DNA of 64,000 nucleotides from a virus. Positions 16,891 to 44,237 of this stretch are shown here, in pieces. Position numbers and translations under genes: made by a program. The notes beneath the pieces were generated by a model, which was given only the letters and a program-made list of their open reading frames with translations, was not told the DNA's origin and searched no databases. Where the stretch lies: positions 11,047 through 75,046 of IMG/VR virus record IMGVR_UViG_3300045988_101367. One strand, 5' to 3'. The first letter of the stretch is position 1, and each line of letters begins with the position of its first letter.

Positions 16891-16892
16891 TT

Positions 16893-17812: not shown

Positions 17813-17850
17813 GTGGACTGTCAGCCCCAGTTCGAATCTGGGTAGCCCAA
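17813..17850 (+). tRNA. tRNA 3'-half fragment (T-arm CCCAG-TTCGAAT-CTGGG plus acceptor strand TAGCCCA)
   Basis: No matching 5' acceptor strand, D-arm or anticodon arm upstream. Confidence 0.3.
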
Positions 17851-18038
17851 CAACTGAAATAGGTACTAAACAACTCTCAGTAACTCTATTAAATAGCGTA
17901 ATTACCTTAAAATTAATCATTTGGGTTAAAAAGAGAAAGAACGTTAGATAGCTGAGGACAATGGAATAGTTTAAATATAACCAGTGAATATCGCCTATTA
18001 TTTAAATAGATTATTAACACATTAATTATAGATAAATT

Positions 18039-18428: not shown

Positions 18429-18433
18429 GAGAT

Positions 18434-18793
18434 ATGGAAATAAAAACAATACAGATTGACTCTGATACATTTTTAGTGTTTAAGGGACGAGAGTACAGAC
18501 AGATAAACATAAATGACATTGTATGTATAAAAACATCTGGTAAATATAGTACTATAATAGATGTTCATGGCAATAGTATTATTGTGTGTTGTTCATTAAA
18601 AAATATTTCACGTGTTTTATGTATTAATTTTATTCTTGCAACACAAGGATTTTTAATAAATCATAAATACATATCTGAGATAACTAGAAAGAATGATGAA
18701 AACAATACATATATCTTAAAATTAAATGATGATATTCATACAACTGTGGATATTTCATTACATATAGCTACAAACATGTTAAAACAATTGTAA
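18434..18793 (+). CDS. hypothetical protein (119 aa)
   Basis: Track ORF. Confidence 0.4.
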   Translation: MEIKTIQIDSDTFLVFKGREYRQININDIVCIKTSGKYSTIIDVHGNSIIVCCSLKNISRVLCINFILATQGFLINHKYISEITRKNDENNTYILKLNDDIHTTVDISLHIATNMLKQL

Positions 18794-18825
18794 TACCATA
18801 ATAATTTAAGGTTTATAAAATAAAT

Positions 18826-18858
18826 ATTGTTGGCAACTAGCAGATAATTAGTTGCTCC
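18826..18858 (+). promoter_or_regulatory. conserved hairpin element upstream of a tRNA (copy 2)
   Basis: attgttGGCAACTAgcagataatTAGTTGCtc; near-identical to 15620-15650. Confidence 0.4.
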
Positions 18859-18860
18859 TT

Positions 18861-18943
18861 GGCTCAGTATCCGAATTGGTATAGGAGATGGTCTTAAACA
18901 CCATTGGACATGTGTCCGTACGGGTTCGAGTCCCGTCTGAGCT
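18861..18943 (+). tRNA. tRNA-Leu(TAA), class II
   Basis: Acceptor GGCTCAG/CTGAGCT, anticodon arm ATGGT-CTTAAAC-ACCAT, long variable arm GGAC-ATGT-GTCC, T-arm ACGGG-TTCGAGT-CCCGT. Confidence 0.65.
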
Positions 18944-19029
18944 AGAATAGCAAATGAGAAACCTCCACGTGGTGCTATTCGGATAACGCTAATTCTCATA
19001 AAATTAATATAGTTCAGATTATAAGCTAA

Positions 19030-19134
19030 TTAAATATGGCGGAATTGGTATACGGCAGTAGATTGACGGAAGCGCCTCTAAAGTCGTCGTTAAATATTTC
19101 TTGAGGATTAAAGGTTCGAATCCTTTTGTTTAAG
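19030..19134 (+). tRNA. tRNA-like element (~105 nt) with canonical T-arm AAAGG-TTCGAAT-CCTTT but unresolved body
   Basis: AT-only acceptor pairing TTAAATA/TGTTTAA. It contains a CTCTAAA loop identical to the suppressor tRNA anticodon loop, but I could not fold a stem around it. Confidence 0.2.
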
Positions 19135-19268
19135 TTAGCTTGTCTGAACTACATAATTGATTATTTATTATGTTTTGAAAAATTAAAATCATTCATAATT
19201 ACTATGAATTTGTGAAAATTTATAAGTAATGTAAAATTTTCGTTTTGTAAAAGATTTTATCTTTTTTT

Positions 19269-19305
19269 AAACTCATACTGCTTGCGAAAGTAGTATGAGT
19301 TTTTA
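19269..19305 (+). terminator. hairpin terminator with conserved loop (gcttgcgaaagt)
   Basis: aaactcatact-gcttgcgaaagt-agtatgagttt followed by ttttaaat. A related hairpin with the same loop core (aagagct-ttgcttgtgaaagtag-agctctt) lies at 19565-19595. Confidence 0.5.
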
Positions 19306-19451
19306 AATAAGGCTATATAGCAATACTAGTATAAAAGCATGTCCAGATGCTTAATCCCTAGAATAGGCTGTCTGATTCAATATGGCGGCACATAGTCAAC
19401 TAACTAGGCAAAGCGTTTAATAAAAACAAATGCTCTTACTGAATTGTAATG

Positions 19452-19523
19452 AAATGTGTAGCTCAGTGGTTAGAGCATCTATCGTTGAGTAGAAGGTTGG
19501 CAGTTCAAATCTGTCCACATTTC
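19452..19523 (+). tRNA. tRNA with atypical anticodon arm (possible 8-nt loop)
   Basis: Acceptor AAATGTG/CACATTT perfect, D-arm GCTC-AGTGGTTA-GAGC, T-arm GGCAG-TTCAAAT-CTGTC. The anticodon region folds as TCTA-TCGTTGAG-TAGA. Confidence 0.4.
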
Positions 19524-19719
19524 CTTTTTCTATCATTATTTTAATTTTTAATTTATTAAAAATAAAAGAGCTTTGCTTGTGAAAGTAGAGCTCTTATCAA
19601 AATTATGCGAAAACTTTAATAAGTCGGAGGACTTACAAAAACTCAAAAACAGTGTGTCTTAGTTGCAACGTTCTCTTGACTGAGAAAGGAGAGGATTAAC
19701 GACCCTCAGACACATCTTC

Positions 19720-19792
19720 GGGCTTGTAGTTCAATCGGTTAAAACGGGAGACTCATAATCTCTTATTCTCGGTTCAATCCCGGGCGAGCCCA
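19720..19792 (+). tRNA. tRNA-Met(CAT) (elongator or Ile-lysidine type; 1-72 pair is G-C)
   Basis: Acceptor GGGCTTG/CGAGCCC, anticodon arm GGAGA-CTCATAA-TCTCT, T-arm CTCGG-TTCAATC-CCGGG. Confidence 0.6.
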
Positions 19793-19941
19793 CTATTTCT
19801 TTTATTATATTATTCTATTTTAAAAAGTCTAATTAGTTAATCTAGTTAGGCTCTTTTTTGTTTAATTAAATAGCACATTAACATATAGATTTTACAAATG
19901 AAATAAACACTCTTGAATCTGAGAAGCTCAGATTAGAGGAA

Positions 19942-26904: not shown

Positions 26905-27205
26905 TTTCTTTGACGATGGTAAATGTTCGCCAAGTAGGTTATATAAAGCTTATATAAAGAAAGTAATTCCTTTTAATAAAGCTGATATACATCTAAAGAT
27001 ACATTTAGTTAATAGTGCTCTTAACTGTAGTTGGATATGGAATGGAGATACTGACTATTTTATAGGTTGTTATATTCCTGAGTACGACGATCATCTTATT
27101 TGGTTTGCAAGAACTAAATATGATACATGGTTCAGTATGGATATTCAATCTAATTGGCAAGGAGGATTATTAGATGTCAATAGAGATATTCAATTTAGTT
27201 TTTAA
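26876..27205 (+). CDS. hypothetical protein (109 aa)
   Basis: Track ORF. Confidence 0.4.
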   Translation: MIPKKRQIYNFFDDGKCSPSRLYKAYIKKVIPFNKADIHLKIHLVNSALNCSWIWNGDTDYFIGCYIPEYDDHLIWFARTKYDTWFSMDIQSNWQGGLLDVNRDIQFSF

Positions 27206-27321
27206 CATTAATTAAGTTTTAAATTATGGGTAATGAAGATAGAATAGATCCAGATGATTGGTATAATAATTACAATTATTTACGTGGTAGACACTAATTT
27301 ATAAAAGAGTTCTTTTAAATT

Positions 27322-27654
27322 GGGGCATTCGTGGTTTTGATTGTATAGGAGATAAGAAACACAGCAAGACAGTTGGAGAGACAACAAAACAATAATCGCT
27401 AGAGTTATCAATATGACTCCTGTTTCTTACGCTATTGCAGCCTAAGAAACCGAGCAGCACTTGCTTGGGAACGGAAAGGTGCATTATTCTTTTATTTCTT
27501 TATTAGTTCTCTGTATACTTTAGGAACAGAGTGGTGGAAGTTGGCAATGTTAATCTTGTCAACCCTAACAGACAAGGATAGTCTTTAAAACCTATGCTGT
27601 AAGAACGTTTTGATGCAAATATGCAAGACTGGAGTTCGACTCTCCAATGCTCCA
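27322..27654 (+). ncRNA. ssrA: tmRNA (SsrA-like) candidate
   Basis: 5' GGGGCAT pairs with 3' ATGCTCC (one G-U), giving a tRNA-like acceptor with discriminator A. 3' T-arm TGGAG-TTCGACT-CTCCA. Internal tag-like reading frame ...aat atg act cct gtt tct tac gct att gca gcc TAA (…SYAIAA*) resembles the ...YALAA tmRNA tag ending. No protein ORF in the region. Confidence 0.55.
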
Positions 27655-27688
27655 CTAGTTCATAGAACTATTTTATTATTTGTTTTTA

Positions 27689-27730
27689 ATCCCTGGGCTA
27701 TTATTATAGTTCAGGGATTTTTGTTTAATT
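27689..27730 (+). terminator. rho-independent terminator
   Basis: aatccctg-ggctattattatagtt-cagggatt followed by tttg/ttt. Confidence 0.5.
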
Positions 27731-27886
27731 TTAACTGTTAATTATGGGAATTTTTAGTAATTTTTTAAAAGAAAACAAAAAAGAACAGAAGCCTTTAATA
27801 ACTATAGATAAAGAATTATCTAAGTTAGCGGTGGATTTAGTAGGGTTTCAGAAGGCACAGCATTAATTCCTTTAAAGTCTAATGAT

Positions 27887-28594
27887 ATGTCTGGAGAATA
27901 TGCCAGATTATGTGGATTAGGCAATAGTGCAAATGCTAAATTCTTAAAAGACAGAATACGTGATATTGATGCATATAACAGAAATATCATAAAAGCTTGT
28001 GAGTTGTTAGCTTATATAAAAACTATAAATGAGTTTTTAGGAGACTCTGTTGTATTAGTTAGTAAAGATTCTTTTTATAAATTGTGTCATAAATATAAAT
28101 TATCTGTTGGATCTCTTGAACAATTCACCGGAGTTATACCTGATGCTAATTTAAAGGAGTTCTCAGATATAAAGTATAAGATGGATCATTACTCTGGTTA
28201 TGTGAAATTAAATACAAACCATCACACAATAGAAATTAAACGTATATATAATCGTAGTGATAAGAGTGATTCTAGTATTAGTAAATACTTTGATTATAAT
28301 TTTAATATTATTTCTTATCCTGCCTATCTATATCGTATGAGTGATATTAAAGAATTTAAAGATAAGGAATGGGCTGAAAAAGTCTCTCTTGATGTACGTT
28401 ACATACATAGAGACGAAATATTCATAGCTTGTCCAAAATCAAATCTACAAGAGAAGGAAGTTATAGTTTCTCACCCTGTAGATCCAATAATATTTCAATA
28501 TTGTCCTTATGGAGTATTAATATATACTATGTGGGGAAAAGAAGCTGAAGATAAAGTATTTGAAGAATATAAAAAGTTAAGAACTATAAAATAA
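27887..28594 (+). CDS. hypothetical protein (235 aa)
   Basis: Track ORF. Confidence 0.45.
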   Translation: MSGEYARLCGLGNSANAKFLKDRIRDIDAYNRNIIKACELLAYIKTINEFLGDSVVLVSKDSFYKLCHKYKLSVGSLEQFTGVIPDANLKEFSDIKYKMDHYSGYVKLNTNHHTIEIKRIYNRSDKSDSSISKYFDYNFNIISYPAYLYRMSDIKEFKDKEWAEKVSLDVRYIHRDEIFIACPKSNLQEKEVIVSHPVDPIIFQYCPYGVLIYTMWGKEAEDKVFEEYKKLRTIK

Positions 28595-28699
28595 ATATGG
28601 AAGAACATATTAATAACTCTATTAAAATAATTGATAATATGTTATATAACATAGATATTCTTATAAATTTATTAAAGTAATTATTAAACATTTATCAAA

Positions 28700-28966
28700 A
28701 TGGGTAAACAAATTTGGTTGCAAGATGGCAACGTTTTTAGTCAGGGTAGTGCGACAACAGTATCTCATCCTGAAGGATTACCGAAAGGTATTTATGAAGT
28801 AAAAGTCTCAATGACTGGATTTTACTTAAGTAAAATCGCTGAGTCTTTTACGTTTGATTACAAACTGTATGGTCTAAACCAAAAATTTATTAATTATGTC
28901 TTAAAGACATATGATAACACTACAGGTAATTTAGGTGTTCTGTTAGACGGAATCAAAGGAACTGGT
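28700..28966 (+). CDS. AAA+ ATPase, exon 1 (ends in Walker A ...LLDGIKGTG)
   Basis: The ORF terminates right after GIKGTGKI. Joining ...ggt (28966) to exon 2 aaa aca gtt... restores the GxxxxGKT Walker A. Confidence 0.5.
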
Positions 28967-30277
28967 AAAATTTAAGCAAATTCAGTAAGCTTAAATTTTT
29001 AAAAATTTTATATTTATTTGGATTTAATAAAATTTCATATATATTATAATAATATTAATTTTAACTATATGAATATGAAATTTGTAATTAATGAAGAATT
29101 AGGAGAAAAAATTAAAACTTTGTACTTAATAGATGGATTAAGTTGTACTAAGATTGGTAAAGAGGTTGGAATTTCTACTTCTACTATAAGTTCATTTCTA
29201 AAAAGAAATGGAATTGAAGTAGTTAATAAACAAAACAAATTATTATTTGATCTAGATAAAGATATTATTCCTAAATATAAGCAAGGGATAAGTTTATCTA
29301 AATTAGCTAAAGAGTATCATACTTCTATCCAAACTTTGTCTAGAAAATTAAAAGCTAAAGGGATTGAAATAATCAATCATCAAAATGAAACTAAATTTAA
29401 TGAACATATCTTCGATGTTATAGATACCGAGGAGAAGGCTTATTGGTTAGGATTTATATTTGCTGATGGTTATATTTCATCAAGAGATAACGGTTTTGAA
29501 CTATCTTTAAAAGGCTCTGATATTGAACACTTACATAAATTTAATAAGTTTATGGAGCATAATAAAGATAATGTCAAATTAGGGGAAGTTAAGAATAAAG
29601 ATAAAACTTTTTTAAGATGTCGCTGGGGAATAGTCAATAAGCACTTATGGAATACTCTAAATAATTTAGGATGTATTCCAAGAAAAAGTTTAACTCTTCA
29701 ATTTCCTAATATTTCTGAAGAATTAAAAATTCCTTTTATTAGAGGATACTTTGACGGAGATGGTTGTCTAAGTTATTATTAGAGAGCTAAAATTTTACCA
29801 AAAGTTTCATTTCTAGGAACTGAGCAATTTTTAGTAAAGATACAATCAATATTAAATAATTTTAATATAAAAAGTTCTTTAGTAAAAGATGCGCGAATGG
29901 AAAATACTCTAGTATTAAATGTATCTTCAACAAATTCTTTAGATTTTTTAGACTTAGTATATAGTAATAGTTCCATTTATTTAGACAGAAAATATAAAAG
30001 ATATAAAATTTTTAAAACTTGCCGTTCTAAACAGGAATGTTTAGAATTATTAGCGGGTGAAAACGGAGAAGGCTGTGATGCTAATTCCGTGGTAAATGAA
30101 GATAGTAACGAATCTTCATCACTGTAACGCGTAGAAGTTGAAACTCTTATAAGAGAATATAATACTTCCAAGAGCACCCGCTCTCCCAATCATTTGAATG
30201 GAGAAAAAGGTACGCTGAGCTATAACAAACAAGAAGTTATAGAAATATAGATAAAAAGCTATATGATAACAATACTG
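28967..30277 (+). mobile_element. group I-like self-splicing intron carrying a LAGLIDADG homing-endonuclease ORF; approximate boundaries
   Basis: It splits an ATPase gene between Walker A and Walker B. The 5' exon ends in U and the intron ends in G (…atactg|aaaacag). Its 3' ~230 nt and first ~20 nt are homologous to the ORF-less intron at 60123-60374. Confidence 0.5.
29018..30127 (+). CDS. LAGLIDADG homing endonuclease (two motifs) with N-terminal HTH repeats; needs readthrough of TAG 29780-29782
   Basis: AYWLGFIFADGYIS and IRGYFDGDGCLSYY are the two LAGLIDADG motifs. The track ORF stops at TAG immediately after motif 2, yet the same frame continues (…(Q)RAKILPKVSFLGTE(Q)FLVKIQSILNNFNIKSSLVKDARMENTLVLNV…) to TAA 30125-30127, as expected for a full-length enzyme. 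Confidence 0.6.
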
Positions 30278-31165
30278 AAAACAGTTACCGCAAAGGAACT
30301 TTGTAATCATTTACAGCTTCCTGTGATCTTAGTACAATCAATGGGTGTTGATACTAATAGTAAATTAATAAAATATTTATCTACCTCTATTGATTTTGAC
30401 TGTATCTTCTTCTTTGATGAATATGAGAAAGAATTTAAAAATTCTTCAGATGTTCTTTCTTTCATGGATGGTACTTATAACTCTATTTATCGTAAGGTAT
30501 TTTTACTTACTACTAATGAGTTAAATGTAGACCCAGATCTTCTTGGTAGACCTTCTAGAATAAGATATAAAAAGTCTTTCAGTAATCTTTCTGAGGAAGT
30601 TACTAGAGAGATTCTTAATGATATCTTGGAAGATAAAACTGCTATAGAAAAGGTTATAGAGCTAACTCATTCTATGAATATTATTACTATAGACTTAATT
30701 AAAGCTATAGCAACTGAAATTAATATTCATGGAGTAGAAGCTCTTCCTGATATTAAAGAAACCTTTAATATTGAATTCTCTAGGTTTACTTATTTGTATA
30801 GAGAAGTACAAATCAGACATTGTGACTTGAAATTTACTCCTGAAAATATAAAGAATATATTAAAAGCTTTTTATAAGTTTAAAGAAATTAAAAAGAAAGA
30901 TTGGAAGAAACATACTCGTGAAGAAAGCAAATTCTATAACGAATGGTCTACTAAGTTCAATGAGGATTATGGTTCCACTACTGAGGATAAAGAGTTAAAA
31001 TATCTGGAACCTGGAGATTATTTTGAGGATGATCGTATATTGATGGTAAGTATTAAAGAAAAATATGTAGTAACTATGACTGATTATGGGAATATTAGAA
31101 TATATATAATTAATAGTTGCTATTCTACAAGTAAAGCTACAGGTCTTGTAAATTACGAATTATAA
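30278..31165 (+). CDS. AAA+ ATPase, exon 2 (Walker B FFFDEYE, sensor LLTTN, Arg-finger-like RPSR)
   Basis: KTVTAKELCNHLQLPVILVQSMGV…CIFFFDEYE…VFLLTTNE…LLGRPSRIRY; the track ORF 30263-31165 begins inside the intron 3' end. Confidence 0.5.
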   Translation, partial: KTVTAKELCNHLQLPVILVQSMGVDTNSKLIKYLSTSIDFDCIFFFDEYEKEFKNSSDVLSFMDGTYNSIYRKVFLLTTNELNVDPDLLGRPSRIRYKKSFSNLSEEVTREILNDILEDKTAIEKVIELTHSMNIITIDLIKAIATEINIHGVEALPDIKETFNIEFSRFTYLYREVQIRHCDLKFTPENIKNILKAFYKFKEIKKKDWKKHTREESKFYNEWSTKFNEDYGSTTEDKELKYLEPGDYFEDDRILMVSIKEKYVVTMTDYGNIRIYIINSCYSTSKATGLVNYEL

Positions 31166-31243
31166 AAAATAAATGCCCCCCTGGAATTAATATCAGTTAG
31201 TTCTTAGATATTTAATTTTTATTATTTAAACATTTACAAATTT

Positions 31244-32797
31244 ATGGAACATTTAGTTCTTATTGGTGTTATCGCAGTCGTTATTATTGTACTACTTGTT
31301 ATTATTGCTACAATGTATGTTAAAGCTCCTCCTTCGATGGCGTACATTCTTTCAGGTTTTCGTAAGGAGCCACGAGTACTTATCGGTGGTGGTGGAGTAA
31401 AAATTCCTGTACTTGAACGATTAGATAAAGTATATCTTGGTCAAGTAACAGTTGATGTTAAGACTTCACAACCAGTTCCTACTCATGATTTCTTGGATGT
31501 AATGGTAGATGCCGTATGTAAAGTTAGGGTAAAACCTGATACAGAAGGCACTAGACTTGCAGCTAAGAACTTCTTGAATATGAATTCTGTGCAGATTGCT
31601 GCTCAGGTGAAAGATTCTTTGGAGGGTAATATGCGTGAAGTAGTAGGTTCTCTTGACTTGATTAAGATTAACACTGATAGAGATGCATTCTCTGATGAAA
31701 TTCAGAAGAAGGCAGCTCCTGATATGGCTAAGTTAGGTCTTGAGATTTTGTCTTGCAATATTCAGAATATTACTGATGAGAAAGGCTTGATCCGTGATTT
31801 GGGAGCTGATAATACAGCAGCTATTCAGAAGAATGCTAAGATTACCCGTGCTAATGCTGATAGAGATGTAGCTAAGGCTCAGGCTGAGGCTGACAATGAG
31901 GCTAATGAAGCACGAGTAAAGGCTGACACCATTATTGCTGAACGTAATAATGAATTAGCTATTAAGAGAGCTGAACTGAAGAGATTGTCTGATATTAAGA
32001 AGGCTGAATCTGATGCCGCATATGAAATTCAGCAGCAGGAGCAGCAGAAAACTATTAATATCAAGACTGTAGATGCTGATATTGAGAAGACTCGTAAAGA
32101 ACAAACCTTGTCTGAGGAGAAGATTAAGATTAAGCAGAATGAGTATCTTGCAGATGTAAATGCTAAGGCTGATGCTGACAAGTATCAGACAGAAATTGAT
32201 GCTCAGGCTGCTTTAGAGAAGCAGAAGCGTGAGGCTGAGGCTGAAGCTTATAAAGCAGAGCAAACTGCTAAGGCTGTAAAAGCTAAGGCTGAAGCTAATC
32301 GTTATTCTCAGGAGCAGGAGGCAGCAGGTATTCGTGCTAAGGGTGAAGCTGAAGCATATGCTACTCAGCAGACCTTGACTGCGGAAGCTGAAGGTACTAA
32401 AGCTAAACTTTTGGCAGAAGCTGAAGGTGTGAAGGCTAAGGGTCTTGCAGAAGCTGAGGCTATGCAGAAGAAGGCTGAAGCATACAGTAAGTATGGCTCT
32501 ATTGCTGTAATTGACATGCTTTCTAAACTTAATGAGAAAGTTCTTCCTGATATGGCTAAGTATATTGCTGAACCTATGAGTAAGATTGGCAATATGACAG
32601 TTTATGGAACTAATGGTTCTGAGGCTTCTGGTATTTCTGGTAATGTACCTGCTATTATTAAGCAGACTCGTGACATTGTAAAAGATGCCACAGGTGTAGA
32701 TATGGCAGACATTATGAAGGCTAACACCATTGATGCTAAGGTTAACAAGAATGTTAACGTTAATGGCGATGTAGAAAACACCAATGTAAATGTATAA
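31244..32797 (+). CDS. SPFH/band-7 flotillin-like protein (517 aa), N-terminal TM helix, long Ala/Glu/Lys-rich coiled-coil region
   Basis: N-terminal membrane anchor, SPFH-type core (…YILSGFRKEPRVLIGGGGVKIPVLERLDKVYLGQVTVDV…), then extended EAEA/AKA repeats typical of flotillins (FloT/YqiK-like). Higher GC than the flanks. Confidence 0.7.
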   Translation: MEHLVLIGVIAVVIIVLLVIIATMYVKAPPSMAYILSGFRKEPRVLIGGGGVKIPVLERLDKVYLGQVTVDVKTSQPVPTHDFLDVMVDAVCKVRVKPDTEGTRLAAKNFLNMNSVQIAAQVKDSLEGNMREVVGSLDLIKINTDRDAFSDEIQKKAAPDMAKLGLEILSCNIQNITDEKGLIRDLGADNTAAIQKNAKITRANADRDVAKAQAEADNEANEARVKADTIIAERNNELAIKRAELKRLSDIKKAESDAAYEIQQQEQQKTINIKTVDADIEKTRKEQTLSEEKIKIKQNEYLADVNAKADADKYQTEIDAQAALEKQKREAEAEAYKAEQTAKAVKAKAEANRYSQEQEAAGIRAKGEAEAYATQQTLTAEAEGTKAKLLAEAEGVKAKGLAEAEAMQKKAEAYSKYGSIAVIDMLSKLNEKVLPDMAKYIAEPMSKIGNMTVYGTNGSEASGISGNVPAIIKQTRDIVKDATGVDMADIMKANTIDAKVNKNVNVNGDVENTNVNV

Positions 32798-32803
32798 ACA
32801 TTA

Positions 32804-32840
32804 AGTATCACAGAGGGAGGGAATAATCTCTCCCTCTTTT
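32804..32840 (+). terminator. rho-independent terminator
   Basis: agagggagggaataatctctccctc stem followed by tttttct. Confidence 0.55.
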
Positions 32841-32859
32841 TCTAACTTTTAAAAATTTT

Positions 32860-34893
32860 ATGGAATACTTAGATTTTAGAAATCTTGTTACAGAAGCATG
32901 TAATAAGATGATTAAAGAGAACAAACATCTCTTTATTCTTGACACTCAAAAAGAGTTTTTATGGATGGCTTATATGGAATCTTTCCCTGAAGGAGCCGTA
33001 CGTCAAGAATTTAACTGTGTAAATTGTAAACATTTCATTACTCGCTATGGAGTATTAGTCTCTGTAGATGAGAATTATAAAATACATTCTTACTGGGAGG
33101 ATGTTCACGCTGAAGGAATGTTTGCTAAAGTTGTAGACAATATGTTACAAGTGCTTAAAAATACTAAAATTAGGAATGCATTTGTTACGAAAGAGACTAC
33201 GATGGGTTGTAAATGTAATCAGCAGATACTACCTTCTAAAGAAATAATTACTTGGAACCATTTTTATGCTACTCCTACAAGTAATTTAATTATGGATAAG
33301 TCTCAGATTCCAACATTCCGTGCAGGTGCTAAATCTTCACATGATGTATGGGTAAGAACTTTATCTGAAATTAACTATAATTCTGTACAAACAGTATTAG
33401 ACTTAATTGTAGATGATAACCTCTATAGAGGTGACACTTATCTACGTCAAGTGAGTGCTTTAAAGACTGCTCTTGATACAATAGAGAGTAAGCACTTGGA
33501 AGGTTTTGAGTTAGATAATTATGCTTGGATATCTTCTTGTGTACTTCCTGATGCTGTAACACATATACTTAATAGTGCTATAGGTCAACTTCTTAAAGAC
33601 ATAACTGATACTAACAATGTTGAAAGTTCAGTTAAAAAGTTTGAAGCTATGGTTGCTCCTTATAATTATAAGAGACCTAAGGGTATTATCACCAAAACTC
33701 AGGTAGAAAATGCTTATAAAACTGTAGTAGAACTTGGTTATGAAGATTCTTTAGAGCGCCGTCATGCTAAAGTAGAAGATATATCTATTGAAGATGTTAT
33801 CTTTGTAAATAGAGAAACTCGTAAGAGAATGTTAGGAGGATTTGATTCTCTTATGAATGAAACTTCTAATACTAGCAAAACTGCTACAGACTTTGAGAAG
33901 ACTGCTATTCCAACAACTATGGAAGAGTTCCTTAATAATATTGTTTCTAAGGCTAGTAAGCTTGAATTATTCTTTGACAATAAGTTAAATAATAATTTAG
34001 TAACTCTTACTGCCCCAGTTAATAAAGAAGCTCCTTCTATGTTTAAATGGAATAATGGGTTTGCTTGGGCATATAATGGTAATATCTCTGATGCTATTAA
34101 ACAACGTGTTAAAGAAGTAGGAGGTAAGGTAGATGGCTATATGAGAATCTCTCTTCATTGGTATAATTACGATGATTTGGATTTACATATGGATAGTCCT
34201 TATGGACACATTTATTATAGTAATAAAGCGGACCTTCTTGATGTAGATATGAATGCCTATGGAGGTAGTGCTTTTGAAGAACGTAATAATCCTAAGAAAT
34301 TCTCTCGCAATGCTGTAGAAAATATCATTTTCTCAGGAATTCCTAAAGCAGGTACTTATAAAGTATTTGTTAACAACTTTGCTAAAGTTGAAAATATTGA
34401 TTTAGGATTTGAAGTAGAAGTAGAACTCAATGGAGTTGTTCATACTTATGTGTATGATAAAGACGTCCCTCATAAGAGCGATGTTTCAGTATTAGACTTT
34501 ACTTCTAATGGGCGTGAAGTTATCTTTACTAAAGAACATTTAAGTAGTACTACAGCATCTAAAGAAATTTGGGGAGTAAAGACTCAGAACTTCGTTGAAG
34601 TATCTGCTATATGCTTATCTCCAAATTACTGGGGAAATAATAAAGTAGGTGCTAAGCACTATTTCTTTATATTGAAGGATTGTAAGAATCCAGATGCTGT
34701 TCGTGGATATTTTAATGAATATCTTAAAGATGAACTCACTAAAAATCATAAGAGAGTATTTGAAGTATTAGCATCTAAAGCTTTAACTCCTTATGATGAT
34801 AATCAGATGAGTGGTTTAGGATTTATAGCTACTTCTCGTAATTCACTTATGGTTAGAGTAGATTCAGGTAAAATTTATAAAGTAAACATTTAA
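32860..34893 (+). CDS. large hypothetical protein (677 aa) co-located with the flotillin gene
   Basis: Track ORF. N-terminal FNCVNCKHF Cys pair. No family recognised by eye. Confidence 0.5.
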   Translation: MEYLDFRNLVTEACNKMIKENKHLFILDTQKEFLWMAYMESFPEGAVRQEFNCVNCKHFITRYGVLVSVDENYKIHSYWEDVHAEGMFAKVVDNMLQVLKNTKIRNAFVTKETTMGCKCNQQILPSKEIITWNHFYATPTSNLIMDKSQIPTFRAGAKSSHDVWVRTLSEINYNSVQTVLDLIVDDNLYRGDTYLRQVSALKTALDTIESKHLEGFELDNYAWISSCVLPDAVTHILNSAIGQLLKDITDTNNVESSVKKFEAMVAPYNYKRPKGIITKTQVENAYKTVVELGYEDSLERRHAKVEDISIEDVIFVNRETRKRMLGGFDSLMNETSNTSKTATDFEKTAIPTTMEEFLNNIVSKASKLELFFDNKLNNNLVTLTAPVNKEAPSMFKWNNGFAWAYNGNISDAIKQRVKEVGGKVDGYMRISLHWYNYDDLDLHMDSPYGHIYYSNKADLLDVDMNAYGGSAFEERNNPKKFSRNAVENIIFSGIPKAGTYKVFVNNFAKVENIDLGFEVEVELNGVVHTYVYDKDVPHKSDVSVLDFTSNGREVIFTKEHLSSTTASKEIWGVKTQNFVEVSAICLSPNYWGNNKVGAKHYFFILKDCKNPDAVRGYFNEYLKDELTKNHKRVFEVLASKALTPYDDNQMSGLGFIATSRNSLMVRVDSGKIYKVNI

Positions 34894-34905
34894 TAATTAA
34901 CAACA

Positions 34906-35274
34906 ATGTACAAAGAAGCATTACAAAAGAAATTACGTTTTAAGACAAACAAGGGTATGCTTACTACAGAAGATTTGTTCGACTTATCTCTGCAGAATCT
35001 TAACACTTTAGCTATTATGCTGGATAAGAAAATTAGTGAGGCTCCTAAGAAGTCTTTCATTGAAGAGCTCCCAGCTGAAGAAAATGATGATGAACTTCGT
35101 TTCAGCATCGTAAAAGATGTAATTAATATTAAATTAAAGGCTCGTAAAGACAATATTGATAAAGCACAAGCTGATGCTCAAAAGAAACGCATCCTTGAGA
35201 TCCTCGCAAAGAGAAATGACGAAGAGCTTGAGAAGAAATCTACTGAAGAACTTCGTGCTATGCTTCAGAATTAA
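34906..35274 (+). CDS. hypothetical coiled-coil protein (122 aa)
   Basis: Track ORF, charged and helical. Confidence 0.4.
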   Translation: MYKEALQKKLRFKTNKGMLTTEDLFDLSLQNLNTLAIMLDKKISEAPKKSFIEELPAEENDDELRFSIVKDVINIKLKARKDNIDKAQADAQKKRILEILAKRNDEELEKKSTEELRAMLQN

Positions 35275-35391
35275 AATTTTTAAGATTTTATTTTTAGAAA
35301 AAAAATTCACAACTATAATAACTTCAGTAATAAGGAGTACTTATTGAACGTTGTGAAACGTGAATTATAGTCGTGATAATTAAAGGAAACT

Positions 35392-35430
35392 CAATCTTTT
35401 GAGGGGACTCTATTTAGAGTTCCCTCTTTT
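35392..35430 (+). terminator. rho-independent terminator
   Basis: gaggggactct-attt-agagttccctc followed by ttttgg. Confidence 0.5.
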
Positions 35431-35438
35431 GGTTTATT

Positions 35439-35660
35439 ATGACTAGCAAATTTAAATTGTATGAAAGTATTGTTTTAGACAATATCAAATTTACAGTTAT
35501 TAATATTAGTGTAATTCCACAATGTGCTCAATATATAGATGATAAATTTGTCTATTTATTTGATTTTAATTATTCTTTAAGTTATGGGGATTACAAGATA
35601 GAACTCACAGAGACAGAAATAAATAATTTAATTAAAAATAATAAAGTAAACAAAAATTAA
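35439..35660 (+). CDS. hypothetical protein (73 aa)
   Basis: Track ORF. Confidence 0.35.
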   Translation: MTSKFKLYESIVLDNIKFTVINISVIPQCAQYIDDKFVYLFDFNYSLSYGDYKIELTETEINNLIKNNKVNKN

Positions 35661-35813
35661 CTTTTATAGTTAAATTATATTTATATCACAAACGGGTTAG
35701 GACTGTTATAGTTACGAATTTCATGATTCCCAGATGTATATATCTATAAATATACTGACTTTTTTGAAGATTTCAACATGAAATTGGAAGGGTCGTACTT
35801 ACCTTAGTACACA

Positions 35814-35848
35814 GAACCGAGAATTGGGAAGTTCTCGGTTCATTTTTA
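35814..35848 (+). terminator. rho-independent terminator
   Basis: gaaccgagaa-ttgggaag-ttctcggttc followed by atttttaaatttt. Confidence 0.55.
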
Positions 35849-35922
35849 AATTTTATTAAAATTATATTTTGAATAATAAAATTTAGATTTATAATAGTCA
35901 ATACGATAAAAAAGAATAAAAA

Positions 35923-36078
35923 ATGAAGAAATTACTTGTATTTAGTGTGTTATTTACACTCTTAAGTTGTTCTACTGGTTCAAATAATTCAGTAAATTCA
36001 ACTTCAAATGATTCTATTAATGTTGATACTACAGTAGTTGATACTACTGCTATTGATTCAACTGTATGTCCTGATTAA
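35923..36078 (+). CDS. small lipoprotein (51 aa; signal peptide plus LLSC lipobox)
   Basis: MKKLLVFSVLFTLLSCSTGSNNSVNSTSNDS... Confidence 0.4.
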   Translation: MKKLLVFSVLFTLLSCSTGSNNSVNSTSNDSINVDTTVVDTTAIDSTVCPD

Positions 36079-36089
36079 TCAGGACTTTC

Positions 36090-36170
36090 GTCTAGATAAC
36101 CAAGTGGTCAACGGCAGCAAGCTGTTAACTTGCCCCGAAAGGTTCCTAGGTTCGAATCTTAGTCTAGACG
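36090..36170 (+). tRNA. tRNA-Asn(GTT) with unusually long variable arm
   Basis: Acceptor GTCTAGA/TCTAGAC perfect, anticodon arm GCAAG-CTGTTAA-CTTGC, ~12-nt variable region, T-arm CTAGG-TTCGAAT-CTTAG. A palindrome gtcctgattaatcaggac precedes it. Confidence 0.5.
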
Positions 36171-36241
36171 CAATAATATATGCCTCTTATTTCTAAGGTT
36201 AGCTACCTTCTCGAAAAGAAATGTGTACACAAGAGGCGCCT

Positions 36242-36318
36242 GGAGTATTAAGCCCTGTTGGTAAGGGAACTAGACTGTCATTCTAGTAAAACTAAGGGTT
36301 CGAATCCCTTATATTCCG
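36242..36318 (+). tRNA. tRNA-Asp(GTC)
   Basis: Acceptor GGAGTAT/ATATTCC, anticodon arm CTAGA-CTGTCAT-TCTAG, T-arm AAGGG-TTCGAAT-CCCTT. Confidence 0.6.
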
Positions 36319-36343
36319 CAACTAATTAAAAAAAATAAATAAT

Positions 36344-36820
36344 ATGAAAAAAACTTTTAATTATCAATCTGATGCAAATTTTTATGATAAAAAGGATTTT
36401 ATTATAGCTACTTTAAAAAGAAAAATAAATAGTTTTAAAGAGTATGATGCTGAAAGAAAAAAGCATTATGCGGGACTAGAACAAAAAATCGGAGAGTTAG
36501 AATCTTATATAGATGAATTAGAAAATGGATCGACTATAGCTTCCTTAAATAATAAGATTCAGTCTTTAGAAAATGAGATTGAGAAACAGAATCTTAAAAT
36601 TAGAGAGTTAAGAGCTAAAGTTAATATATCTTTATTTGATAATACTAAGTCTTTTAGAGAATTGGAATCTATAGCAAATAATTTGAAAGACTTTAATAGC
36701 ATGAAATTAGCTATTAAAGCTCTCAAAAAACATCTTAAAGATAATAAAAAAACTATATCTGATTTAGTATATGAATTAACACAAGCTAAACTTAAAATAA
36801 AACAATTAACTGGAGAGTAA
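36344..36820 (+). CDS. hypothetical coiled-coil protein (158 aa)
   Basis: Track ORF, followed by ggaga-gtaa-tctcc hairpin terminator (36800-36830). Confidence 0.45.
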   Translation: MKKTFNYQSDANFYDKKDFIIATLKRKINSFKEYDAERKKHYAGLEQKIGELESYIDELENGSTIASLNNKIQSLENEIEKQNLKIRELRAKVNISLFDNTKSFRELESIANNLKDFNSMKLAIKALKKHLKDNKKTISDLVYELTQAKLKIKQLTGE

Positions 36821-36830
36821 TCTCCAATTT

Positions 36831-36904
36831 GGGCTCGTAGTTCAGTTGGCTAGAACGCTACTTTTGCAAGGTAGATGTCGTGGGTTCGAGTCCCACCGTG
36901 GTCC
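36831..36904 (+). tRNA. tRNA-Ala(TGC)-like with mismatched acceptor stem (possible pseudogene)
   Basis: D-arm GTTC-AGTTGGCTA-GAAC, anticodon arm CTACT-TTTGCAA-GGTAG, T-arm GTGGG-TTCGAGT-CCCAC. The 3' strand CGTGGTC does not complement the 5' GGGCTCG (2-3 mismatches). Confidence 0.4.
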
Positions 36905-36923
36905 ACTATTAAATTAAATATTT

Positions 36924-37262
36924 ATGAAAATAACTATTGATACAGACAATTTAGAAACATTAAAGTATAAAACTGAAGATGTTCCTATTTTAATGAAGAC
37001 TTTCCAACAATTAATAAATAAATTAATGTATGAAGTAATAGGGAATTATTATTCTGTAGACAATGTTCCTGAAGATGCTCCAAAATGGGTAAAAGAAGAA
37101 CTACTTAATGTAGGAAAAACCTGTTATATGGATGGGCATATGAATAAAGAATATGTCTTTAAAGGTATTCAAGAAACATTTGAGGATTATTATTATATAT
37201 TAGAAGATAATAATAAAAAAATTTCTTATTCTTCATGCGTTGGAAAGATATCTTATAAATAA
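36924..37262 (+). CDS. hypothetical protein (112 aa)
   Basis: Track ORF. Confidence 0.4.
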   Translation: MKITIDTDNLETLKYKTEDVPILMKTFQQLINKLMYEVIGNYYSVDNVPEDAPKWVKEELLNVGKTCYMDGHMNKEYVFKGIQETFEDYYYILEDNNKKISYSSCVGKISYK

Positions 37263-37264
37263 AT

Positions 37265-37342
37265 GCAAGATTAGTGTAGCTGAAGGCGCATATCTGGCTT
37301 CCAACCAGAAGGCTTGCGTGGGTTTGATTCCCACATCTTGCA
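37265..37342 (+). tRNA. tRNA-Gly(TCC)
   Basis: Acceptor GCAAGAT/ATCTTGC perfect, anticodon arm TCTGG-CTTCCAA-CCAGA, T-arm GTGGG-TTTGATT-CCCAC. Variable region is longer than usual. Confidence 0.55.
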
Positions 37343-37436
37343 CTATGATAAAGCTCTAGAATACTAGTTACAGGAGCAACGTAACTTATAGGGTGCCTCT
37401 CAACGATGCATACTCGCCTATTAGGTGTCGTAGAAC

Positions 37437-40896: not shown

Positions 40897-41196
40897 ATGA
40901 TTTGTCTAAATTTAGTTTTACAGAATTTTCAAGAGCTATTAAGTATTGGGATACATTCCTTAGATAATGGAGAAATTCCTGCTAAAATGCCTAAAAAATA
41001 TGTTCTAGAACTTATATGTGATTATTTAGCAGCAGCTAAAACATATGGAGCTGACCCTAGAAGAGAATATACATGGTGGCTTAAACAACAGCCTCATATG
41101 AAAATCCACAAAAAAACTAAGAGTTATATAACTGAAGTGTTTTATAAATATAGTATAGGTTTAACATTAAAAGAATCAATTAATGGAAATTATTAA
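40897..41196 (+). CDS. hypothetical protein (99 aa)
   Basis: Track ORF. Confidence 0.35.
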   Translation: MICLNLVLQNFQELLSIGIHSLDNGEIPAKMPKKYVLELICDYLAAAKTYGADPRREYTWWLKQQPHMKIHKKTKSYITEVFYKYSIGLTLKESINGNY

Positions 41197-42473
41197 TGCA
41201 ACTGATGGCTACAAGCTTGGTCATCATCGTATGTACCCAGAGGGTACACAAATGGTCTATAGTAATTGGACTCCTAGAAGTAATCGTTACTTCCCAGAAG
41301 CTACAGAAGGTTCTGTAGTATTTGGTATTCAGTACTTTGTAAAGAAGTATTTGATAGAGGAATTTAACAAATGGTTTGCTCTTCCTAAGGAAGAAGCTAT
41401 TAAGCAATTTGCTTATCGTGTAGGCAACTTTGTAGACCTTAATCAGGTTGGAACAAAACATATTGAAGAACTTTATGATTTGGGGTATCTTCCTATTGAA
41501 ATTAAAGCTCTTCCTGAAGGTTCTATCTGCCCTATAAGAGTGCCTATGATGACTATTAAGAACACTCTTCCTGATTTCTTCTGGTTGACTAATTACTTGG
41601 AAACTTTAATTAGTTGTACTCTATGGCTCCCTTGTACTTCTGCAACAAGTGCTCGTCTTTATAAGAAGAGACTTATAGAACATGCTAGAAAGACTGGATT
41701 CCCAGAGGAAGTAAATCTAGGTTTCTCTTGTCACGATTTCTCAATGAGAGGTATGGCAGGACTTGATGCTGCTATTATCTCTGGTATGGCTCATATGACT
41801 TCATTCTGTGGTAGTGAAACAATTCCTGCTATTGAAGCAGTAGAACATTATTACAATGCAAATGTTACTGAAGAACTTGTAGCTGCAACTGTTCCGGCTT
41901 CAGAACATTCAGTAATGTGCGCAGGAGGTGAGGATGGTGAGATTGAAACATACCGCCGTCTTATTAATGACCTATATCCAACAGGTATTATCTCAATAGT
42001 ATCTGATACTTGGGATTTTTGGCAGGTAGTTGAGAAATTCTTGCCTAAGCTTAAGGCAGATATTATGAAACGTGTTGGTCGAGTAGTAATTCGTCCTGAT
42101 AGTGGTGATCCAGTAGACATTATTTGTGGTCTTCGTACAAATCCTCACTATCATACTGCTATGAAAGAAGGTAAGTATTACTGTGATTTTAATCCATTTA
42201 TGGACGATGATGAAAATCATTATGTAGAAGTATCTGAAGGTCAGTACTATGGAGCATATTATATGCTAGGAAAAATCTTTGGATGGAATACTACTGTAAA
42301 TGACTATCGTTATCCAAGTACCAAGGTTGGATTACTTTATGGAGATTCTATTACTCTGGAGCGTCAGCGTGATATCTATGCTAGATTGGAAAACGCTCAT
42401 ATGGCAGCTTGTAATCTTGTTCTAGGTATTGGATCTTATACTTATCAGTTTAAGAGTAGGGATTCACTTGGCT
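41183..42473 (+). CDS. nicotinamide phosphoribosyltransferase-like enzyme (NAMPT family; Namat-type candidate), exon 1
   Basis: N-terminus MEIINATDGYKLGHHRMYPEGTQMVYSNWTPRS matches the NAMPT start (…[23 protein letters not shown]…). The frame stops 7 codons after ...SRDSLG inside the intron. Confidence 0.65.
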
Positions 42474-42686
42474 TAACTGCGAGGCCCTTTATATAGTAAT
42501 GTATATCGAATAACCGGAAGAATTGCTGGGAAGAGTTTGTTAATTCTTAATCAGCAGCCGAGCCACAGGGAAGACTGAGGAAGGTTCAGAGACTAAGGAC
42601 ACTACGGTGAGCCTACAGCCTCCGGAATCCCTAAATATAGGGATTATGATATAGTCCATAAAAATTAACATAATTTAGCTTTTATG
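42474..42686 (+). mobile_element. group I self-splicing intron (IA2-like core, no ORF), 213 nt
   Basis: Contains P (ccggaagaattgctgggaagag), Q (aatcagcagcc), R (ggttcagagactaa) and S (gatatagtcc) consensus-like elements. 5' exon ...cttggcU can pair with gaGGCC (P1 with U-G at the splice site). Intron ends in G before tcgcag...; splicing restores the NAMPT C-terminus in frame. Confidence 0.65.
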
Positions 42687-42949
42687 TCGCAGTAAAAGCA
42701 ACTGCTTGTATAATTAATGGAAAGCTTATAGAAATCTATAAGCATCCAAAGACTGATGATGGAACAAAGAACTCTCTCAAAGGTCTTATTAGAATTGAAG
42801 AAGAGAATGGTAAGTATGTCGCTTATGACCAGCAGACTAAGGATGCAGAACTGCAAGGTTGTCTTAAAACAGTCTTTGTAGATGGAGAATTAGTAAGAGA
42901 ATATTCTCTTTCTGAGATTCGTGAACGTGTAAATTCAACATTAGTATGA
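42687..42949 (+). CDS. NAMPT-family enzyme, exon 2 (C-terminal 87 aa)
   Basis: …FAVKATACIINGKLIEIYKHPKTDDGTKNSLKGLIRIE…CLKTVFVDGELVREYSLSEIRERV aligns with the NAMPT C-terminus (…[29 protein letters not shown]…[21 protein letters not shown]). Confidence 0.6.
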
Positions 42950-43440
42950 TAGAAATTGTTAATGGAGATTTACTTCAGTCAAATTTACCTCTTATAGCCC
43001 ATCAAACTAATTGTTTAGGAGTAATGGGGGCAGGTATAGCTAAGGCTATTAAAAATAAATGGAATAGCGTATATACACGATATGCCAATTATTGTAAATA
43101 TTTTAAATATTCTAAAGAATTATTAGGGAAATGTCAAGTATGTATAACAGGAGATGAACCTATTAATCTCGTAGCTAATTTATTTGGAGAATATTCTTTT
43201 ACTGAATCAGTAGCTCCCTATGAAAATAGACATACTGATTATGATGCTCTTAAAAAAGCTTTATTAGATTTAAAAGACTTTTGTAAAGATAACGAGATTA
43301 CAGAGATAGGCATTCCTTATAAATTAGGATGTGGATTAGCAGGAGGAGATTGGGACGGAGTAGTTTATCCTATGCTCCAAGAACTTTTTGCTAATGATTT
43401 AACAATAACCCTTTATATTTATAAATTATGCAACAATTAA
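42946..43440 (+). CDS. macro domain protein (ADP-ribose binding/processing)
   Basis: GDLLQSNLPLIAHQTNCLGVMGAGIAKAIKNKW matches the macro-domain GDIT…VNAAN…GGGVxGAI pattern. Confidence 0.55.
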   Translation: MIEIVNGDLLQSNLPLIAHQTNCLGVMGAGIAKAIKNKWNSVYTRYANYCKYFKYSKELLGKCQVCITGDEPINLVANLFGEYSFTESVAPYENRHTDYDALKKALLDLKDFCKDNEITEIGIPYKLGCGLAGGDWDGVVYPMLQELFANDLTITLYIYKLCNN

Positions 43441-44237
43441 ATTTAGTACATTTAGAAGATAGTGATATTAAGTATTCTATCTCTAGATTCCCTGATGGAG
43501 AAGTTCAAATTTCATTAGAAGAATTCAGTCATAAGGAGCAAGTATTAGTTAACTGTAGAGTTACTAATGCTGAAGACTTATTTATACTTATACAAGTTTT
43601 AGATATTCTTGATAGACATGAAGTTCTGTATAAGTTAAATATCTATTACTTAATGAGTATGAGAATGGATAGAGTAATGGATTTCAATAGACCATTCACT
43701 TTAAAAATAGTCTTAAACATATTAAAAAATTGTAATGCAGAGACTATTGAAATTTTAGAACCTCATTCTGATGTTTATTATGATCCTAGATTCGGAGTTA
43801 AATTTATGCCTCTCTATAGTGAAAAGAATCCATCTAATAATACTTGGAAAGAATTTCAATTAGTTTTCCCAGATGCTGGAGCTGTAAAGAGAAATGAATT
43901 CAGATATAATCGCGTAGGAATTACTTGTAGTAAAGTCCGAGATTTAACTACTGGAAAAATCTTAGAGATTAAAATAGATAATCCTGAAAATATACAGGAT
44001 AAACCTCTGTTAATTCTTGATGATTTATGTGATGGTGGTGGAACCTTCTGTGGTATTGCTAAAGCATTTAATGCTTTAGGTATTTCTAAAGAGCGTTTAA
44101 ATATTGCAGTTACTCATATGGTAAATTCTAAGGGTATAAAGAATCTGTCAGAAAATTTTAATCACGTATGGTTTACTAATTCTTATAAAGACTGGGACAA
44201 TCTTCCTGAGAATGTTACAATGTTTAAGGTTATCTAA
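43428..44237 (+). CDS. ribose-phosphate pyrophosphokinase (PRPP synthetase) family enzyme; Adps-type candidate
   Basis: FPDGE (cf. Prs FSDGE), PDAG and the PRPP-binding loop DDLCDGGGT (cf. DDMIDTGGT). Confidence 0.65.
   Translation: MQQLNLVHLEDSDIKYSISRFPDGEVQISLEEFSHKEQVLVNCRVTNAEDLFILIQVLDILDRHEVLYKLNIYYLMSMRMDRVMDFNRPFTLKIVLNILKNCNAETIEILEPHSDVYYDPRFGVKFMPLYSEKNPSNNTWKEFQLVFPDAGAVKRNEFRYNRVGITCSKVRDLTTGKILEIKIDNPENIQDKPLLILDDLCDGGGTFCGIAKAFNALGISKERLNIAVTHMVNSKGIKNLSENFNHVWFTNSYKDWDNLPENVTMFKVI

Follow-up and report, generated by a model that had tools for sequence, protein, structure and literature searches.

Flotillins and the phage locus

Bacterial flotillins such as FloT/YqiK, together with eukaryotic flotillin-1/2, are members of the SPFH superfamily, and their architecture, from an N-terminal anchor through to the Flot domain, is identical to that of a 517-amino-acid (aa) protein encoded in a 64,000-nucleotide (nt) stretch of viral DNA, positions 11,047 to 75,046 of IMG/VR record IMGVR_UViG_3300045988_101367 (hereafter, the window). 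This flotillin gene and its downstream neighbor, which encodes a 677-aa protein, are the subject of the present analysis. Unlike the FloT/YqiK-type flotillins of bacteria, the window flotillin is encoded by a virulent-type gut phage and sits within a phage operon, and it departs further from the canonical bacterial flotillin operon in having no NfeD-like neighbor and in scoring under the cut-off for the FloT equivalog. In a second described system, HflK/C-FtsH, an SPFH protein is encoded beside a classical AAA-family ATPase, as is the case in the window, although the likeness is one of analogy only.

The window has a G+C (GC) content of 29.7% with almost all genes on the + strand, and it shares 97% identity with MT835492.1, an unannotated 121.6-kb "Bacteriophage sp." sequence from human faeces. 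Its other close relatives, IMG/VR and metagenome contigs of up to ~181 kb, come from human and baboon gut, and the phage is a large, virulent-type human-gut phage. An initial annotation had singled out the two genes as one horizontally acquired, GC-rich island bracketed by terminators, possibly acting as a pair on the membrane. Both open reading frames (ORFs) are real, and the flotillin is a true one of horizontal origin; what did not survive is the functional pair or single island, along with the shared GC-richness, the bracketing terminators and the lack of a family for the 677-aa protein. We favor instead, at a probability of roughly 60%, a reading in which the interval holds two independent units, an operon of the 677-aa gene (family DUF8224) with a small 122-aa gene and a Bacteroidales-derived flotillin cassette replacing a different, type-2 flotillin, and in which flotillin and DUF8224 are neighbors by insertion and not partners. 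The features on which this argument turns are as follows.

31166..31243 (+): spacer of 78 nt, with a weak AT-rich hairpin after a C-rich tract (−6.7 kcal/mol, z −2.1)
31244..32797 (+): flotillin type 1, with anchor, SPFH/Band_7, Ala/Glu-rich coiled coil and Flot domain; Bacteroidales-derived
32812..32837 (+): intrinsic-terminator-like hairpin plus T tract (−18.5 kcal/mol, z −4.7)
32860..34893 (+): DUF8224 / phrog_1735 protein of 677 aa (phrog_1735 profile), with an N-terminal domain, a possible TerD-like domain and a C-terminal beta-rich domain
34906..35274 (+): 122-aa helical protein, phrog_2018 (E 4e-31), the conserved downstream partner of DUF8224
35401..35426 (+): intrinsic terminator ending the DUF8224-122aa unit (−18.6 kcal/mol, z −4.6)

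The flotillin, DUF8224 and 122-aa genes contain no in-frame TAG, and all three stop at TAA.

Identity of the flotillin

The 517-aa protein matches Pfam Band_7 (PF01145) over residues 28-206 (E 8.3e-22, profile positions 3-175 of 176) and Pfam Flot (PF15975) over residues 380-467 (E 1.6e-10), the latter C-terminal to the Ala/Glu-rich coiled coil. Its hydrophobic anchor, as read from the sequence by eye, is formed by residues 4-24 (LVLIGVIAVVIIVLLVIIATM) and is followed by an Ala/Glu/Lys-rich stretch, and solved flotillin-1/2 chains align to residues 25-336 with E 1e-43. The NCBIfam FloT model (NF058507) gives 260.5 bits (E 3.4e-77), which does not reach the 700-bit curated cut-off for equivalog membership; the protein is flotillin-like and is not an equivalog of B. 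subtilis FloT. The flotillin identity originally proposed from an N-terminal transmembrane (TM) helix, an SPFH/band-7 core and a coiled coil is therefore upheld by the Band_7, Flot, FloT-model and flotillin-1/2 matches, and the ORF encodes a complete, true flotillin with TM anchor, SPFH/Band_7 and Flot. There is no NfeD-like partner gene adjacent to it, its neighbors being the AAA ATPase upstream and DUF8224 downstream, and the chromosomal Bacteroidales relatives likewise lack an adjacent NfeD-like partner. The PADLOC defence models gave no match for the flotillin.

The flotillin gene as an insertion

The clearest view of how the flotillin came to lie beside DUF8224 is given by a 60%-identical relative (L005), in which the AAA ATPase gene stops at 5999 and DUF8224 starts at 6001, the two directly abutting. 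In the window and in two closer relatives (L004 and L007), as in other relatives whose DUF8224 is 76-98% identical, these same two genes are separated by the flotillin and its hairpin. This AAA-flotillin-DUF8224-122aa adjacency is limited to one phage clade (15 of the 16 close loci). When the neighborhood within 6 kb was checked for 64 distant DUF8224 loci from IMG/VR, no flotillin was found at any of them (0/64), and all of the other flotillin-bearing viral contigs (9/9) lacked DUF8224, which speaks against a functional pair or island of flotillin and 677-aa protein. Of the two circumstances under which the initial annotation said its reading would fall, one holds, co-occurrence of the two genes being confined to this lineage, and the other does not, the 677-aa protein having no recognized role in the virion or in replication. 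Judged from this comparison of gene layouts, the flotillin is a ~1.7-kb cassette, made up of spacer, gene and hairpin, inserted between the AAA gene and DUF8224.

Base composition separates the two genes as well. The flotillin gene has a GC content of 39.9% against 29.7% for the window (z 3.7), a value reached by 0.08% of equal-length windows, and the GC-richest 1.55 kb of the window is this gene. Its GC at third codon positions (GC3) is 0.29, ~2 standard deviations above the window mean of 0.19 +/- 0.05, its GC at first positions (GC1) is 0.56, and Ala makes up 14.5% of its product versus 4.6%. The claim that both genes are GC-rich thus stands for the flotillin gene, whereas the 677-aa gene, at 32.1% (z ~1, rank 7 of 33 ORFs) and with a GC3 of 0.20 against the mean of 0.19, hardly differs from its surroundings. 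The flotillin gene of a low-GC Paludibacteraceae genome (L011) has a GC of 39.2% and a GC3 of 0.31, much like the phage gene (39.9% and 0.29). A purely amino-acid effect was considered for the flotillin GC excess and is ruled out, since GC3 is also raised and matches that of the Paludibacteraceae homolog.

The hairpins do not bracket the two genes either. The one at 32812-32837 falls between them, directly 3' of the flotillin gene and 22 nt ahead of the DUF8224 start codon, and the one at 35401-35426 follows a third gene (34906-35274); the C-rich tract before 31244, which had been taken for a strong terminator, forms only the weak hairpin listed above, and the terminator scan made no call in the spacer (31166-31243). 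The 32812-32837 hairpin is retained in L004 and L007, with both arms changed. Given the 22 nt that separate it from the DUF8224 start, DUF8224 must be expressed through read-through or from a promoter within the 3' end of the flotillin gene. An upstream motif, TTAAACATTTAYCAAA, that the AAA and flotillin genes share shows no enrichment (3 matches versus 0.96 expected, a number reached in 9 of 100 shuffles), and a sigma-70 promoter scan returned 54 sites against 45 expected under a model that does not cover Bacteroidales promoters.

A second flotillin type and its probable replacement

Although the AAA gene and DUF8224 abut in L005, that relative is not without a flotillin. It has a Band_7 protein of another kind, 603 aa long, sharing 27-29% identity with the window flotillin and located upstream of its transfer-messenger RNA (tmRNA) and AAA genes. 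We refer to this form, of 566-646 aa and 25-29% identity to type 1, as type 2. It is present in 74 IMG/VR loci (L195-L268; 49-83% identity), and it occurs on 31 of 63 distant DUF8224 contigs, where it lies 12-16 kb upstream of DUF8224. A conserved ~170-aa multi-TM protein precedes the type-2 flotillin; L005 and phage csAssE-Sib share it (E 5e-20), and it has no Pfam match and is possibly NfeD-like.

L005 1783-4128 and L269 (csAssE-Sib) 5408-7635: type-2 flotillin plus multi-TM partner, representing the 74 IMG/VR loci

The type-2 operon of L005 and csAssE-Sib, annotated as "flotillin family protein", resembles the window flotillin in belonging to the same phage family, in its early genomic region and in its SPFH scaffold type, and differs from it in sequence, in length and in its multi-TM partner, of which the window contains no homolog. 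The two types were never found on one contig, and type 2 was found neither at the syntenic site of the window nor in MT835492.1 (121 kb, the same phage). Since related gut phages have a different flotillin and the two never share a contig, the phage family appears to keep a flotillin function despite the change of gene. Replacement of an ancestral phage flotillin by a host-derived one is the most economical reading of this distribution.

Bacterial origin and selection

Among 521 bacterial relatives of the type-1 flotillin, the best are chromosomal copies from Paludibacteraceae, Prevotellaceae and other Bacteroidales, 56-68% identical over residues 1-509 and flanked by housekeeping genes (MutS2, an outer-membrane protein, an ABC transporter and an M24 peptidase). 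In a neighbor-joining tree the phage flotillins are monophyletic and nested in a 16-leaf clade whose other members are Paludibacteraceae or Bacteroidales, with the exception of one metagenome-assembled genome labeled "Bacilli" (L008). The suggestion that the flotillin is horizontally acquired cargo is thus well founded, given these homologs, the nesting of the phage copies among them and a composition like that of the low-GC Paludibacteraceae homolog. By these sequence criteria the donor was probably the chromosome of a low-GC, Paludibacteraceae-like member of the Bacteroidales, which would probably be the host lineage.

In the flotillin the ratio of nonsynonymous to synonymous divergence (dN/dS) comes to 0.055-0.061, lower than in DUF8224 (0.18) or the 122-aa gene (0.16-0.18), and the flotillin is under strong purifying selection (dN/dS ~0.06). 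It is 94% identical to its counterpart in L004, versus 79% for the neighbors. Synonymous divergence (dS) is similar for all three genes (0.55-1.15), from which it follows that the flotillin co-diverged with its neighbors and was acquired before these lineages split.

DUF8224 and its small partner

The 677-aa protein, for which the initial annotation recognized no family, aligns with the phrog_1735 profile over its whole length (E 2.4e-200), its residues 1-675 corresponding to positions 2-671 of the 673 in the profile, and homologs 97-41% identical to it carry the precomputed Pfam annotation PF26675, that is, DUF8224. A tblastn search found DUF8224 in 522 phage records, with Kuttervirus and other Ackermannviridae, Bastille-like Bacillus phages, phiCbK-like Caulobacter phages, some N4-like phages, Mydovirus and Cellulophaga phi4:1 among those that carry it, and an exhaustive HMMER search (E <= 1e-3) gives 3,384 clusters at 50% identity, the best 150 of them all 643-754 aa long. 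Compared with PhaxI gp088, CcrKarma gp288, JBP901 gp067 and Pokken gp039, the window protein is a full-length member, 35-45% identical and of equal length, with the same small downstream partner and the same terminator; in the window its gene is parted from the upstream AAA gene by the flotillin cassette. Motifs conserved across 35-45% identical members are CxxC, W.HF, LYRG, VAPxNYKRP, DDLDLH, LDVDMN, VENI, SPNYW and GNKHxFF.

The AlphaFold model of the protein has a mean predicted local distance difference test score (pLDDT) of 72.6, exceeding 90 for residues 1-270 and lying between 40 and 85 in the C-terminal half. The N-terminal domain (residues 1-270) is confidently modeled and has no solved relative. 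A possible TerD-like beta-sandwich at ~425-560, in a part of the model of moderate confidence, is followed by a C-terminal beta-rich domain. In the TerD family (PDB 2qz7, 2kxt) this fold is a calcium-binding beta-sandwich, and the corresponding region of DUF8224 may, if the model is right, bind metal or calcium, although here it is one domain of a 677-aa protein and no sequence-level TerD match was found in Pfam, nor in PDB by phmmer or profile search. When the 677-aa and 122-aa proteins were scanned against Pfam (to E 10, in a copy without the PF26675 model), NCBIfam and PADLOC, the only return was 15 residues of DUF2135 (E 0.12), and no PADLOC defence model matched either protein. PDB searches with the single 677-aa sequence, its profile and the isolated beta-sandwich gave no meaningful match; Foldseek with the model found nothing in PDB below E 0.1 and, in BFVD, only uncharacterized phage proteins. 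The NfeD, vWA or nuclease folds that had been suggested were looked for by profile and structure and left no signal in either. The DUF8224 product is probably cytoplasmic, and our guess is that it is an enzyme or adaptor complexed with the small helical protein in early or middle infection.

Several DUF8224 homologs (PP179312.1 from Arace01, OL615011.1 from Gloob, and OY978796.1) are mislabeled "DNA-directed RNA polymerase" or, as fragments, "ATP-dependent protease" or "DNA methyltransferase". The polymerase assignment was rejected because no RNA polymerase domain is present by Pfam or fold, and the label was traced to the automatic annotation of phage BIS47, whose source paper contains no supporting statement; such labels are unsupported and spreading by similarity. 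No papers came back from full-text literature searches on PF26675, DUF8224 or phrog_1735.

What does accompany DUF8224 consistently is the 122-aa gene. A homolog lies downstream in 63 of the 64 distant IMG/VR loci, at most 150 nt away in 47 of them, and phrog_2018 is present in 421 phage records whose taxon counts match those of DUF8224 (522 records), with adjacent coordinates. The two genes adjoin in 4 of 5 isolate phages compared, Cellulophaga phi4:1 being the exception (~4.7 kb apart), and phage Karma has the same pair with an annotated terminator in the equivalent place. The 122-aa protein could be modeled with low confidence only (pLDDT 67). Together with DUF8224, its gene constitutes an old two-gene operon, closed by the 35401 terminator and found across large virulent phages of many families.

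Transfer RNA (tRNA) genes occur within 6 kb of DUF8224 in 12 of 21 representative loci, and none are there in PhaxI, JBP901, Karma or Arace01; many gut-phage relatives have the module flanked by tRNAs, and the isolate phages do not. In a 44%-identical relative on a 196-kb contig (L006), the genes called beside DUF8224 at 5598-6011 and 8962-9972 hold in-frame stops under the standard code, and recoding may reach early-region genes in that lineage; the same contig also has a nicotinamide phosphoribosyltransferase (NAMPT) gene near DUF8224.

The AAA ATPase gene

Within the gut-phage group an AAA ATPase of phrog_2376 lies directly upstream of the DUF8224 operon. The same ATPase family is found beside the DUF8224 pair in Bacillus phage JBP901 and, more distantly, in Pseudomonas phage Arace01, and it is not beside the pair in Kuttervirus or Karma. 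In the window the gene is split.

28700..28969 (+): AAA ATPase (phrog_2376), 5' part, ending within Walker A (GTGK); blastn alignment to the uninterrupted L004 gene extends up to ~28970
28970..30280 (+): intron-like insertion of ~1311 nt that splits the AAA gene and is missing from L004, L005 and L007
30281..31165 (+): AAA ATPase, 3' part (Pfam AAA E 1.7e-6; phrog_2376 E 2e-28; alignment to L004)

The interruption falls inside Walker A (GTGK|T). The insertion contains a LAGLIDADG homing-endonuclease ORF at 29018-30127 (Pfam LAGLIDADG_3, phrog_4645) that is interrupted in frame by a single TAG at 29780; if this codon is taken as sense, the ORF covers 9-301 of 308 profile positions, and full length needs this read-through. 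No Rfam group I intron (Intron_gpI) was detected to E 0.1 in 27000-37000, a region in which the large ORF insert may mask a real intron. Against PADLOC, the AAA ATPase had weak IetA/BrxF P-loop matches only, and a Pfam scan found no protease domain in it.

Weighing the alternatives

Several observations weigh against two independent units. Part of the flotillin GC excess is accounted for by amino-acid composition and not by foreign origin alone, and the flotillin may be co-transcribed with DUF8224. Each flotillin type has the same AAA ATPase gene no more than a few kb away, which could reflect a functional tie instead of shared synteny. That type-1 phages lack type 2 is known from pattern-seeded scans of contigs that are partly incomplete, and the TerD-like match lies in the C-terminal half of the DUF8224 model, which is of moderate quality only (pLDDT 40-85).

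In one alternative, which extends the idea of the initial annotation, flotillin, AAA ATPase, DUF8224 and the 122-aa protein might form one membrane machine: by analogy with HflK/C-FtsH, the ATPase and DUF8224 would be drawn to the inner membrane by a flotillin cage or enclosed in it there. The conserved gene order of the close loci, seen in both baboon and human gut assemblies (15/16), would fit such a machine, as would the 22 nt from flotillin hairpin to DUF8224 start, with co-transcription likely, and the solved HflK/C-FtsH structure (7vhp), in which an AAA protease is enclosed by SPFH proteins. So too would the position of the unrelated type-2 flotillin, which in L005 precedes AAA-DUF8224 by 0.7 kb and in 33 of 75 type-2 loci precedes the AAA homolog by 2-5 kb. 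Yet the linkage is not general: the DUF8224-122aa pair has no flotillin within 6 kb in any of the 64 distant loci, is flotillin-free also in Kuttervirus, Bastille-like, phiCbK-like and N4-like phages, and lies 12-16 kb from the flotillin in type-2 phages, while other viral flotillins occur without DUF8224 and the AAA gene, and neither gene lies within 6 kb of the six flotillins most closely related to that of L005. Unlike FtsH, moreover, the phage ATPase has no detected protease domain, and no TM segment or signal peptide was seen in the DUF8224 and AAA sequences when these were read by eye, with no predictor. We therefore consider a single machine unlikely.

The remaining alternatives concern what the flotillin does on its own. 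Its cages could serve counter-defence, stabilizing the membrane against abortive-infection effectors, or superinfection exclusion, blocking the entry of competitors' DNA. The surrounding early/middle region is rich in likely counter-defence or auxiliary genes (NAMPT, Macro-domain and phosphoribosyltransferase genes at 41-44 kb), the same region of L004 holds a Tad2-like gene, and strong purifying selection and retention of the function across gene replacement would be expected of such a role; nevertheless, the flotillin matches no PADLOC defence model, its architecture is nearly identical to that of housekeeping host flotillins, and the literature searched gives no SPFH protein with this role, the purpose of an SPFH lipoprotein in one N4-like phage being called unclear in a single paper, so that we regard the idea as improbable. 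Control of lysis timing, with membrane microdomains in which the flotillin would organize or sequester holins or other lysis proteins, is a still weaker candidate. Flotillins scaffold membranes and large phages need long, controlled latent periods, but this gene has no adjacent lysis gene and lies among standard-code early/middle genes, away from the TAG-recoded virion/lysis-type genes at 3.4-8.9 kb. Least credible of all, and disfavored already, is a neutral passenger, recently picked up from the host and functionless. Raised GC, host-like composition and confinement to one clade are what such a passenger would display, and yet the gene is kept at its full 517 aa, with dN/dS ~0.06 across lineages at dS 0.7-1.1, it is better conserved than its neighbors (94% versus 79% identity to L004), and type 2 is lost exactly where type 1 is present.

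A proposed role for the captured flotillin

If flotillin and DUF8224 are indeed neighbors by insertion, the sequence of events would begin with capture of the flotillin from a Bacteroidales chromosome and its insertion between AAA and DUF8224 in the ancestor of one clade. The captured gene would then have taken over from the type-2 flotillin and its small membrane-protein partner, in a phage family that would need a flotillin of one kind or the other. In the infected cell, the N-terminal helix would anchor the protein in the host inner membrane, and oligomerization via the coiled coil and Flot region would produce a large cage fencing off a patch of membrane. Such a cage might keep or reorganize inner-membrane organization, or enclose a membrane client, during phage replication and a long infection. 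The solved SPFH assemblies matched (flotillin-1/2, QmcA, stomatin and HflK/C) are deposited with 16 to 44 chains per entry, and by analogy with them cage formation is expected; the role in the infected cell is inferred.

A broader proposal, which we regard as doubtful, is that flotillin cages are a required host-takeover device of this abundant human-gut phage family of ~170-190 kb genomes. They would organize replication or assembly, or shield the membrane from abortive-infection effectors, possibly together with the phrog_2376 AAA ATPase in the manner of HflK/C-FtsH, and a host flotillin would have been captured once the ancestral one was lost.

Other features of the window and its relatives

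Elsewhere in the window, 3437-8918 (+) is TAG-recoded: with TAG as sense it yields six long ORFs of 169-381 aa with 2-9 in-frame TAGs each, of which the ORF at 4475-5152, read in this way, has matches in transglycosylase / lytic tail protein families. The window also encodes a tRNA of suppressor type whose anticodon is CTA and a second whose anticodon is TTA (9445-9517 (-) and 16241-16325 (+)). Its 12 tRNA genes fall into two loose clusters, 36090-37343 (+) and 15653-19793 (+); for the one at 19452-19524 the reported "anticodon" has two bases (tt), and L191 has a similar oddity. A tmRNA at 27322-27657 (+) (Rfam RF00023, 49 bits, E 3.6e-17; ARAGORN tag peptide ARVINMTPVSYAIAA) has counterparts near the corresponding region of L005 and L179.

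A second GC-rich stretch (~36%), at 41183-44237 (+), encodes NAMPT, Macro-domain and phosphoribosyltransferase-domain proteins, followed by RNase H and a helicase, and looks like an NAD+ salvage or counter-defence cluster. The Tad2-like gene of L004 (baboon gut) mentioned above, at 17092-17784 and ~9 kb downstream of DUF8224, belongs to the Sequestin/Tad2-like anti-Thoeris sponge family and has no counterpart in the window.

Implications for phage flotillins and the DUF8224 module

The outcome is a host-derived flotillin in a phage, beside a member of DUF8224. Phage-encoded flotillins are almost unstudied, and the literature searched contains only passing remarks on them, in which their purpose in phages is called unclear. 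A false lead is removed at the same time, since DUF8224 is not a partner of the flotillin but half of a very large two-gene module (~3,400 clusters), which occurs in tractable phages (CBA120/PhaxI-like Kuttervirus, phiCbK-like and Bacillus Bastille-like phages) and is open to knockout study there. A widespread family of gut phages appears to have kept a flotillin through replacement, with the gene under strong purifying selection. This points to membrane-microdomain scaffolding as important when Bacteroidales are infected, and the flotillin described here gives a concrete gene with which to test the idea.

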